Source: a virus
Virus record (IMG/VR): IMGVR_UViG_3300044697_000029
Coordinates: 20,250 to 84,249 of that record
Reading direction: 5' to 3' (one strand)
DNA: 64,000 bases
Positions 57,997-59,886 of this stretch are shown piece by piece; within the stretch, counting starts at the first letter, position 1, and each line of letters starts with the position of its first letter. Under the pieces are notes generated by a model. The model ran no database searches. It had not been told where the DNA came from and saw only the letters and a list, made by a program, of their open reading frames with translations. A program made the translations under genes and the position numbers.

Positions 57997-59886
57997 ATGA
58001 AGCGATTCCTGCTCACGCTAATGCTTGCACTCTGGGCTGTGCCGGCTCTTGCCCAGGTTCCGGGCGGGGGCGGGACGGTCGCGACCGTCACGGATGGCAC
58101 AAACACCGTCAAGTTCCCGAGCGTGCTGGACTTCACGTCGGGCGCCACTGTGTCGAAAAGTGGGGACGCGGCGAACGTTGCCATTCCCGGCATCGGCAAC
58201 TGCGCGGCAAGCGGCTGCATCGCCTCCACCAACGGCACAGGCACCGGCACCACGCTCACCAACCCCACCCTTTCCGGCACCGTCACTGGCACGCCGACCT
58301 GGGCCAGCGGACAAACGATGCCGACCCTCACCCTGACAGGGACCGGCACAAGCACCCTGGGTTCCGGTATCACGTTCGACTATTCGGGTGGTGCGACGGA
58401 CACGCGGTATTTCTACATCGATACGTTCCTGACGCCATCCGTTTCCACGTCGCATATCTGGGAGCAGGACAATTCCTTCCTGACTTTGGAGCCTGTCAGC
58501 GGTGACGGAAACGCGTTGCTCACGGCGACGGAGTCTGGCGGCACGGCTACCGTCGTGATCAGCGCGGCGGGTTCCAGCTATCCGAACGGGACATATACCA
58601 CCTACACAGTTGGCGGCGGATGCACTGTGTCGGCTCAGGGAACTGCGACGATCTCAGGCGGCGCCGTGACCTCCGTCACCCAGCCCACCACGTCGGGCTG
58701 CACAGGCAACCCCACGGTGAACATTGAAATTGCCGTCGCATCCGGCGAGATCAATGTCACGCATGATCGCTTCGGCAACACGGCCGGCGCCTATGCTACC
58801 CAGGTCGAGGATCACGAGGACAGCAGTGAGAACAACGGCGCGATCATCAACCATCAGATGAACCTTTCGACCTTTCAGAACGACAGCAACGGATCGGTCA
58901 ACTCGCTCGCGTATTATGCGATCGCCCTGACAAACAACAACACAAACCCCGGTGCCATAAACCAGATGCTCGGGGTGGATTGCATTAACCCGAGCGGCAC
59001 CAAACCGAAGTCCATGTCGTGCCTCTACGACTCGATCACGTCGGGGATTGATTACATCGCGGGCGGTCTTGTGATCGGACGTACCTACGCGGGCAATCCA
59101 CAGACTCTCCAGATTTATGGACCGGACAACAGTGCCGGAACGTACGCGCTCTACATCGCGAACCTCGCCGGGACTCCGATCTTGACTGTCGATGATGGCG
59201 GCGGTGTCAACGCCGTGGATGGCACCCTTCGCGTCGGAACGAACGCCAGCGTCGGCGGCACCATGTATATCTATGGGTCCAGTTCCGGGAATGCGCAGAT
59301 ATCGGGCGGCACGAGTGGCACACTTACCAGCCCGTCGCCGGTCAATTTTTCCAATGCGACCATTCAATTGAGCGGGATATCCTCTGATGCCGGCAAGTCC
59401 GACGCTACGGTCTGCACCGTGACCGTAGGCGGCGGCGCACTCTATTCTGGCAGCGGCACCGGCGGACTCTGCCTGTCGACCTCGACGGCGCGCTACAAGG
59501 ACCACATCGAGGATGCCTTCGAGGGCTTCTCCGGTGGGTTGCATATACTGCGGGAGTTGTTTGCGCTGCGAACTGTGCACTTCACCTACAAGAAGGGGCA
59601 CGGCTTCGATCCGACGCACGTCTATTGGGGTTGGACGGCCGAGCAGATGCAGACCGTGTTCCCGGATTTGGTCGGGCATGATGCGGAAGGCAAACCGAAC
59701 TCGGTTGACATGATGGGCATGCTGCCGCGCGTCGTGGCGGCAGTGCAGGCCGGAGAATACCTCGTGCTCGGCATGCTGGCCGCCATGATCGTCCTGGCGC
59801 TCTACTGCGTGGGGCTGCACGCGCACGCCGTATCGCTGAGGCGCCGGGTGGCGGCGATCGAGGCGGTTATGCGGGCGGCTCAGTGA
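57997..59886 (+). CDS. Tail fibre/spike-like protein: signal peptide, peptidase S74 chaperone, C-terminal TM helix
   Basis: MKRFLLTLMLALWAVPALA-Q; STARYKDHI...F.YK...GWTAEQ...FPDLV; LVLGMLAAMIVLALYCVGL. Confidence 0.85.
   Translation: MKRFLLTLMLALWAVPALAQVPGGGGTVATVTDGTNTVKFPSVLDFTSGATVSKSGDAANVAIPGIGNCAASGCIASTNGTGTGTTLTNPTLSGTVTGTPTWASGQTMPTLTLTGTGTSTLGSGITFDYSGGATDTRYFYIDTFLTPSVSTSHIWEQDNSFLTLEPVSGDGNALLTATESGGTATVVISAAGSSYPNGTYTTYTVGGGCTVSAQGTATISGGAVTSVTQPTTSGCTGNPTVNIEIAVASGEINVTHDRFGNTAGAYATQVEDHEDSSENNGAIINHQMNLSTFQNDSNGSVNSLAYYAIALTNNNTNPGAINQMLGVDCINPSGTKPKSMSCLYDSITSGIDYIAGGLVIGRTYAGNPQTLQIYGPDNSAGTYALYIANLAGTPILTVDDGGGVNAVDGTLRVGTNASVGGTMYIYGSSSGNAQISGGTSGTLTSPSPVNFSNATIQLSGISSDAGKSDATVCTVTVGGGALYSGSGTGGLCLSTSTARYKDHIEDAFEGFSGGLHILRELFALRTVHFTYKKGHGFDPTHVYWGWTAEQMQTVFPDLVGHDAEGKPNSVDMMGMLPRVVAAVQAGEYLVLGMLAAMIVLALYCVGLHAHAVSLRRRVAAIEAVMRAAQ

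Follow-up and report, generated by a model that had tools for sequence, protein, structure and literature searches.

Where does a phage fibre mature when its precursor appears to carry an export signal at one end and a membrane anchor at the other? The question is raised by an open reading frame (ORF) at positions 57997-59886 of a 64,000-nucleotide stretch of DNA (the window), which comprises bases 20250-84249 of the IMG/VR record IMGVR_UViG_3300044697_000029. The record is 84,249 bp long and rated complete by CheckV, and we assign it to an uncultured freshwater short-tailed phage (podophage). A preliminary description of the final 417 nt of this ORF had proposed that its product, here termed P0001, is tethered to a membrane by its C-terminal S74 chaperone and released once folded, a proposal that the present analysis supports in silico. 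As judged from its sequence and those of its relatives, P0001 is probably, though by no means assuredly, a precursor from which a trimeric phage fibre is made outside the cytoplasm, and it would be tethered with type I topology and release itself.

Results

P0001 ends in an S74 chaperone domain that retains the catalytic motif

The C-terminal domain of P0001 is a true member of the S74/intramolecular chaperone (ICA) family, and this assignment is supported by hidden Markov model (HMM), motif, structure-derived profile and fold comparisons. The Pfam model Peptidase_S74 (PF13884) matches amino acids (aa) 498-559 with 24 bits (cut-off 22) over profile positions 3-57 of 58, and it scores 28.8 bits in a six-frame search of the genome. 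When a profile of the domain is compared with the PDB, it matches solved ICA structures that include 8jov (E 5e-10), 8hqz (the T5 L-shaped fibre), 6f45 and 7dc3 (MyRF). An AlphaFold2 (AF2) model of aa 476-629, built from an alignment of 19 rows, has a mean predicted local distance difference test (pLDDT) score of 88. Foldseek matches this model best to the MyRF ICA domain (7dc3; E 5e-5, TM-score 0.52-0.58), followed by 3gud (GA-1; E 0.05), 3gw6 (K1F) and 4uw8 (T5).

At the junction of fibre body and chaperone, P0001 reads LCLST/STARYK. The preliminary description had recognized an S74/ICA domain here, with STARYKDHI following LCLST as a variant of its cleavage motif, and both assignments hold. 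Residues S496 (S21), R499 (R24), K501 (K26) and C492 occupy invariant columns in two alignments of relatives (A1 and A4), and the S74 subfamily to which P0001 belongs consistently has Ser or Thr in place of the Asp at position +1 of the S-D-x-R-x-K motif. Autocleavage by S496 and K501 is predicted.

Both ends of P0001 have the hydrophobic features of a type I membrane protein

The start codon of P0001 is forced. The ATG is preceded at 27 nt by an in-frame TAA and at 8 nt by a ribosome-binding site (RBS), GAGGG. No alternative upstream start would therefore remove the hydrophobic N-terminus, and the protein necessarily begins with MKRFLLTLMLALWAVPALA/QVPGG. Regions n, h and c of the usual kind can be made out in this segment, in the expected basic, hydrophobic and A-x-A layout, with a c-region ALA/Q that can be read directly. 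Signal peptides and transmembrane (TM) helices were assigned throughout by hydrophobicity scales and hand rules rather than by trained predictors, and by this heuristic P0001 carries a cleavable Sec-type signal peptide, as type I membrane proteins do.

The opposite end of the protein includes 19 consecutive residues, LVLGMLAAMIVLALYCVGL (aa 589-607), none of which is polar. The segment has a Hessa-scale sum of -2.7 kcal/mol and a Kyte-Doolittle mean of 2.61, and the equivalent region in most relatives has Hessa sums of +8 to +16. In alignments A1 and A4 the apolar stretch starts at the column where the relatives have an amphipathic coiled coil, QEQQxEIxxLK. The residues SLRRR follow, within the sequence HAHAVSLRRRVAAIEAVMRAAQ, which has a net charge of +3. 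Because the AF2 model depicts aa 572-628 as one uninterrupted helix, the apolar segment extends the last ICA helix without a break, and its lack of polar residues rules out a soluble coiled coil. These findings agree with the earlier description of a hydrophobic helix of about 19 residues, followed by LRRR, in the position of the terminal coiled coil.

The other hallmark of a type I membrane protein is one apolar helix, some 20 residues long, that lies close to the C-terminus and is followed by basic residues, and the topology that had been proposed from the two hydrophobic ends is therefore favoured by both. The predicted signal peptide agrees with a helix that would stop transfer and with a positive-inside tail, so that the body and the chaperone of P0001 would be periplasmic, and the tail would be cytoplasmic. 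The locations of these and other features are collected in Table 1.

Table 1. Features of P0001 and of related or neighbouring ORFs, by position in the window
Feature	Position (nt)	Strand	Remarks
Fibre-like ORF 1	32976..34403	+	Signal MKFRTKLLGAIGLLAVIGVAGAHS/Q; 2 Cys; domain common to the S74 fibres of viral loci L014, L017 and L021
Fibre-like ORF 2	34427..35704	+	Signal MKNLSLGAAWLILAGGVAFG/Q; 4 Cys
Fibre-like ORF 3	39377..41404	+	Signal MILRRLVALACTLVLAPALAWA/Q; 12 Cys in mature part
Small hydrophobic ORF	57865..57972	+	35 aa, GTG start; directly 5' of the fibre gene; possible gene, membership uncertain
Precursor ORF (P0001)	57997..59886	+	629 aa; slot of a T7 gp17-like fibre, after internal virion protein genes
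Predicted Sec-type signal peptide, aa 1-20	57997..58056	+	MKR / FLLTLMLALWAV / PALA; predicted cut before Q21; read from sequence
Predicted mature fibre, aa 21-495	58057..59481	+	Gly/Thr/Ser-rich; 8 Cys, arranged as four successive near pairs
Cys473...Cys492 pair	59413..59472	+	Just 5' of the cleavage site; subfamily-conserved TVC-x14-16-GICLGTS (alignments A1, A4)
S74/ICA core, aa 496-588	59482..59760	+	Pfam match aa 498-559 (nt 59488-59673)
Autocleavage motif S496-T-A-R499-Y-K501	59482..59499	+	Ser nucleophile, Lys base; predicted cut T495/S496; the Pfam S74 profile starts here
Predicted TM helix, aa 589-607, LVLGMLAAMIVLALYCVGL	59761..59817	+	Hessa sum, alignment position, AF2 helix; in place of the ICA terminal coiled coil
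Basic tail, aa 615-629, RRRVAAIEAVMRAAQ	59839..59883	+	Predicted cytoplasmic; net charge +3; R615-R617
Downstream membrane proteins	60187..60952	+	Multi-TM ORF (to 60600) and overlapping ORF with TM and coiled coil (60587-60952)

The fibre body carries paired cysteines

The 475-aa body that precedes the S74 domain has its cysteines at positions 69/74, 209/235, 329/342 and 473/492, and one additional Cys lies within the apolar helix. The paired arrangement would fit folding of the body in the periplasm. Only one homologue of the body was found, the distant protein P0003 (33% identity), which likewise carries a signal. The body has no match in Pfam or PHROGs, and P0001 as a whole belongs to no PHROG family. 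An AF2 model of the mature body reaches a pLDDT of only 30, an Atlas model is also poor, and the Atlas matches, which scored below 0.9, serve as leads only.

The signal-S74-TM architecture recurs among metagenomic relatives

When aa 476-629 served as the query of an exhaustive phmmer search, 897 representative proteins were retrieved at E <= 1e-3, and the best 150 of these were used for the statistics that follow. A strict hand rule assigns a signal-like N-terminus to 117 of the 143 representatives that start with Met (at least 82%), and several others are also signal-like. The cysteine pair that brackets the residues before the cut, TVC-x14-16-GICLGTS/SARYK, is present in 134 of 150 representatives, and the predicted mature part contains an even number of cysteines in nearly all signal-bearing ones (111/117, 95%). 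Taken together, this cysteine signature is that of an S74 subfamily adapted to an oxidising compartment.

Chaperone endings vary within the subfamily. Some relatives end in C-x5-9-C loops within the chaperone. A third type of ending, found in P0014, P0051, P0052, P0105, P0111, P0119 and P0101, has the form GAFPFHKCFF(N/D/S)LL(V/M)C(A/P)(D/N), in which a Cys-x7-Cys arrangement is conserved. Both kinds of sequence suggest that the chaperone contains a loop closed by a disulfide.

The ending seen in P0001, an apolar helix followed by at least two basic residues, occurs in 12 of 146 representatives. It is also present in the S74 fibre of an IMG/VR viral contig (L017), which has a signal peptide and eight paired cysteines, ends in GWLVWLLFFWNALLTGWVAALTFRKRA (TM and basic) and adjoins a virion structural gene. 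Basic residues thus follow the helix in 13 of 13 TM endings. The preliminary description had called for a search for other proteins that combine signal, S74 domain and TM helix, and these examples establish that the architecture recurs. On a tree of the S74 domain, TM endings are scattered and require eight changes by Fitch parsimony. Because the tree is short (about 118 aa) and weakly supported, this number indicates scatter, with repeated exchange between coiled coil and TM helix, rather than an exact count of gains.

One relative is especially informative. The metagenomic protein P0004 (679 aa) matches P0001 only over its last 188 aa (76% identity; 59320-59883 in the window), a region that encompasses S74 domain, TM helix and tail, and its body, which is unrelated to that of P0001, also bears a signal. 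This joining of the same unit to an unrelated body means that S74 domain, helix and tail move as a cassette. The two proteins differ by five substitutions in the TM helix, and the tail RRRVAAIEAVMRAAQ is identical in both. The fact that the tail is preserved despite changes in the helix hints at a separate role for this sequence.

In IMG/VR, 23 loci of this kind were found. Fifteen of their 20 distinct ORFs bear signals, and all 15 of these have even cysteine counts. The S74 fibre genes lie in runs of two to nine signal-bearing genes (L013, L015, L016 and L023 have runs of up to nine), and the loci adjoin portal, head-closure or virion structural genes; the run in L013, for example, ends beside a portal gene. 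Word-index searches for homologues returned few matches, all of them metagenome proteins. Scans of 185,579 species genomes (GTDB) found only two loci, a 9-kb contig of a metagenome-assembled genome (L025) and a giant protein of 2680 aa that lacks the Cys pair (L026). Because these scans were pattern-based, the resulting scarcity of the subfamily in cellular genomes is only suggestive.

All fibre-like genes of the phage encode predicted export signals

The genome has a gene order like that of T7 and P22 podophages, in which the portal gene (23524) and the capsid gene (29654) are followed by two paralogues of tail tubular protein A (41404 and 43160) and by tail tubular protein B (44096). Internal virion proteins are encoded at 48506-57844, after which come the ORF for P0001 and two genes for membrane proteins of lysis-like shape. 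Three further fibre-like ORFs precede it in the structural operon (Table 1). All four bear signals, the cysteine numbers in their mature parts (2, 4, 12 and, for P0001, 8) are all even, and no fibre-like ORF that lacks a signal was seen in the operon. A tblastn search of GenBank phages with the third of these ORFs (39377-41404) gave no match. P0001 lacks the N-terminal attachment domain of T7 gp17 (Phage_T7_tail), and its likeness to gp17 is one of gene position only. Almost unchanged, the DNA of the P0001 ORF occurs in metagenomes of freshwater, lake, peat and marine origin from at least 13 studies, and in part in one peat metatranscriptome.

Several neighbouring genes deserve mention. The small peptide encoded directly upstream of the fibre gene (PLPIKLLAGVHFAWGIVAALAVVISGVTGALAHL) is almost entirely hydrophobic, and the G+C content at third codon positions of its ORF (GC3, 0.81) is like that of real genes; its product may be a small membrane partner. 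The two downstream ORFs are lysis-like by position and shape only, T7 having its holin and spanin genes at this location. No endolysin was recognized near them, and a 942-aa ORF at 49043 has weak PHROG matches to lytic enzymes. At the position of an internal virion protein, the ORF at 51727-55242 (+) encodes 1171 aa that include an ADP-ribosyltransferase domain of the ART-PolyVal family (32.1 bits against a cut-off of 31.2), and its product may be an ejected effector. An endonuclease VII/HNH-like ORF, which may encode a homing endonuclease, lies among the fibre-like genes of the structural operon (38110-38877, +). Beyond the late operon, the other strand encodes a Thg1-like tRNA-His guanylyltransferase at 61813-62859 (-) (Pfam 1e-30; phrog_4717, 1.6e-81).

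P0001 combines features of systems that are known separately

S74 chaperones nucleate the folding of trimers from the C-terminus and cut only the folded trimer, as is established for endoNF and T5 pb1. To our knowledge, the known phage S74 fibres are cytoplasmic, lack signals and have a soluble coiled coil at their end. HMM, profile and fold place the domain of P0001 in the same family as those of the K1F endosialidase (3GW6), the GA-1 neck appendage (3GUD), T5 pb1 (4UW8/8HQZ) and a putative tail fibre (8JOV). In each case the Ser/Lys motif lies at the junction with the fibre body and the domain is C-terminal in a fibre gene of the structural module. P0001 differs from these fibres by its predicted signal peptide, the Cys pair at the cut site, and the predicted TM helix with its basic tail; the contrast between its ending and the known S74 coiled coil is based on the alignment with 8jov.

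Exported S74 fibres have been described in a bacterium. The mosaic adhesive trimer (MAT) fibre Bd3182 of Bdellovibrio bacteriovorus is cleaved by its S74 domain at S782, and the S782A mutation blocks this cleavage (Caulton et al. 2024, PMC10769870), which indicates that S74 domains work on exported fibres. The S74 subgroup of MAT fibres resembles P0001 in having a signal peptide, a long fibre (trimeric in MAT) and a C-terminal S74 chaperone (autoproteolytic in Bd3182), and the motif of P0001 occupies the same position as SDxxxK in Bd3182 (PMC10769870). Unlike P0001, the MAT fibres are cellular adhesins displayed on the surface of a predator, and they have a conserved domain, beta-rich and about 130 aa long, after the signal (PMC10769870). 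That report mentions no transmembrane segment for MAT, whereas P0001 is phage-encoded, lies in a fibre slot and carries a predicted TM anchor.

A second parallel, with eukaryotic MYRF, had already been drawn in the preliminary description. According to one report (PMC3742443), trimerisation-dependent self-cleavage by the MYRF ICA domain frees an N-terminal trimer from the membrane. The parallel stands for architecture, in that both proteins have the order cargo, ICA domain and TM helix and the MyRF ICA domain (7DC3, PMC8326128) is the best Foldseek match. It fails for topology. The cargo and ICA domain of MYRF are cytosolic, its TM helix, in the ER membrane, is far removed from the ICA domain on the downstream side and precedes a lumenal domain, and its cargo is a DNA-binding domain, whereas in P0001 the cargo and ICA domain are predicted to be periplasmic and the TM helix is contiguous with the last ICA helix. 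Because Pfam searches found no Ndt80-type DNA-binding domain in P0001, a domain expected of the MYRF family, we regard the protein as an analogue of MYRF and not as a member of that family.

Precedent for signal-bearing proteins in phage particles comes from the cultured Cellulophaga podophage phi18:3 (NC_021794.1, 2892-8584). Its proteins gp085-087 are annotated as virion proteins on the basis of tandem mass spectrometry (MS/MS). They begin with MK, a hydrophobic stretch and (S/A)/Q and are thus signal-like, whereas six other structural proteins supported by proteomics that we checked do not begin in this way; the published record is silent on these signals. Like P0001, gp085-087 are products of fibre-position genes in a podophage and have Sec-type signals. 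Unlike P0001, they have no S74 domain, no C-terminal TM helix and few cysteines, and they share no sequence similarity with it.

Literature searches found no description of a phage fibre that has a signal peptide, an S74 domain and a contiguous TM helix, nor of exported phage fibres in general or of a phage S74 protein with either a signal peptide or a TM helix; papers on Liberibacter and JC1 merely list S74 domains. The parts are known separately, as phage S74 fibres, as MAT fibres with signal and S74 domain, and as MYRF with ICA domain and TM helix.

Discussion

A proposed route from export to release

We propose that the signal peptide routes the P0001 chain through Sec and would be removed before Q21. 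The helix at 589-607 would then stop transfer, leaving the RRR tail in the cytoplasm and holding body and S74 domain at the inner membrane on its periplasmic face. This tether would hold three C-termini together and in register while the S74 domain nucleates folding of the trimer, beginning at the C-terminus, and all four Cys pairs become oxidised. In the formed trimer, the Ser496/Lys501 dyad would cut between T495 and S496, so that aa 21-495 are freed to the periplasm and the chaperone of 134 aa is retained in the membrane. The released fibre would join the particle, itself built in the cytoplasm, once the inner membrane opens at lysis. A membrane helix in place of a coiled coil could serve such a route well, because the C-termini would be held in two dimensions, unfolded chains would be kept from the periplasm, and only certified trimers would be set free.

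Each element of this route, from export and topology to cleavage, release and destination, is deduced from sequence and should be read as a prediction. The most likely destination of the released fibre, a matter that the preliminary description leaves aside, is the virion, a role favoured by the position of the gene, by the absence of a fibre gene without a signal and by the virion annotation of phi18:3 gp085-087.

Alternative explanations

Could the fibre be exported and self-released, yet never become part of a virion? The free trimer might instead act on the envelope of the infected cell, for example by binding, masking or cutting a receptor or surface glycan, with the proposed effect that progeny are not lost on debris, that superinfection is blocked or that release through a capsule is eased. 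The export signals speak for this possibility as much as for a virion fibre. Moreover, no tail-docking domain was found in P0001 with Pfam or PHROGs, the gene is the last of its block on the + strand and is set off by a gap of 150 nt with its own RBS, the four signal-bearing ORFs have no N-terminal module in common, and action at cell surfaces by exported S74 fibres is exemplified by the MAT fibres of Bdellovibrio (PMC10769870). However, the phage would then be left without a recognizable fibre or spike, since every fibre-like ORF bears a signal. The ORF occupies the canonical fibre slot, and the signal-bearing proteins of homologous type in phi18:3 are recorded in virions. We therefore regard a role outside the virion as unlikely, while giving it more weight than the other alternatives considered here. 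A variant in which the gene is a lysogenic-conversion moron is likewise unlikely, as no tyrosine integrase was found in the 84-kb genome.

If P0001 were not exported at all, its N-terminal helix could be a plug for trimerisation or tail docking, and its C-terminal helix could be buried at the centre of the chaperone trimer or, on the cytoplasmic face, act as a tail anchor, with assembly proceeding as in textbooks. Tailed phages as a rule assemble in the cytoplasm, and a helix that replaces a trimeric coiled coil could in principle form a hydrophobic three-helix core. This explanation must nevertheless accommodate a tripartite signal shape with A-x-A/Q that is kept across very different sequences in at least 82% of relatives, even cysteine numbers in 95% of the signal-bearing ones where about 50% would be expected absent disulfides, a positive-inside pattern in all 13 TM endings, and 19 residues without a polar one, which are not expected in a soluble protein. 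We consider it improbable. Less probable by far is that the C-terminal helix and basic tail are a sorting signal for an exosortase, a rhombosortase or a sortase-like enzyme. An apolar helix with a basic cluster at the extreme C-terminus does recall signals of the PEP-CTERM and LPXTG types, and several relatives end directly after the basic cluster. However, the residues before the helix in TM-type relatives (QAGEY, IEQYE, REIWE, NEIK, QQM and others) share no conserved motif, for which reason we reject a sorting signal of this type. In addition, 12 residues follow RRR in P0001, and the S74 domain is predicted to remove the whole chaperone, which would make a C-terminal attachment signal ineffective on the mature fibre.

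Several observations weigh against a membrane-tethered, self-releasing fibre precursor, the interpretation that we prefer. Tailed-phage particles assemble in the cytoplasm, and literature searches found no described route by which periplasmic fibres are added to them. Neither a fibre or receptor-binding fold in the body (AF2 model, pLDDT 30) nor an N-terminal tail-docking domain (Pfam, PHROGs) was recognized. The signal-peptide and TM assignments come from simple scales, and the AF2 model, being monomeric, cannot separate a membrane helix from a buried one. Furthermore, the relatives of P0001 are exclusively metagenomic; tblastn searches of 50,697 GenBank phage records, with the whole of P0001 and with its C-terminal domain, found no relative.

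Implications for phage fibre assembly

A broader idea follows, which we put forward tentatively and with less confidence than the reading of P0001 itself. This phage, and many uncultured phages with export signals on their fibres, may build receptor-binding fibres in the periplasm, where these would be exported by Sec and disulfide-bonded, and, in the TM variant, held at the membrane until the S74 domain certifies and cuts the trimer. Such fibres would meet a fibre-less particle only at lysis, a step that the chaperone trimer left in the membrane could additionally mark or time. Among arguments from sequence that the signal peptides on the fibres of many uncultured phages are functional, the TM variant is the sharpest to date, because a signal, a stop-transfer helix and a positive-inside tail are together hard to explain without membrane crossing. 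It also offers a simple biochemical read-out, a membrane-bound precursor versus a soluble cleaved trimer, by which the wider question can be tested without culturing the host. A C-terminal cassette that tethers, checks folding and releases could, in turn, serve the periplasmic production of difficult trimeric fibres.

For the ICA family, P0001 and its relatives would mean that a release device of the MYRF type, with cargo, ICA domain and TM helix in this order, also exists across the membrane from its MYRF counterpart, in relatives of the domain from phages and bacteria. For tailed phages, whose assembly is held in the textbook view to be wholly cytoplasmic, the export, tethering and release of P0001 would represent a different way of making a fibre.

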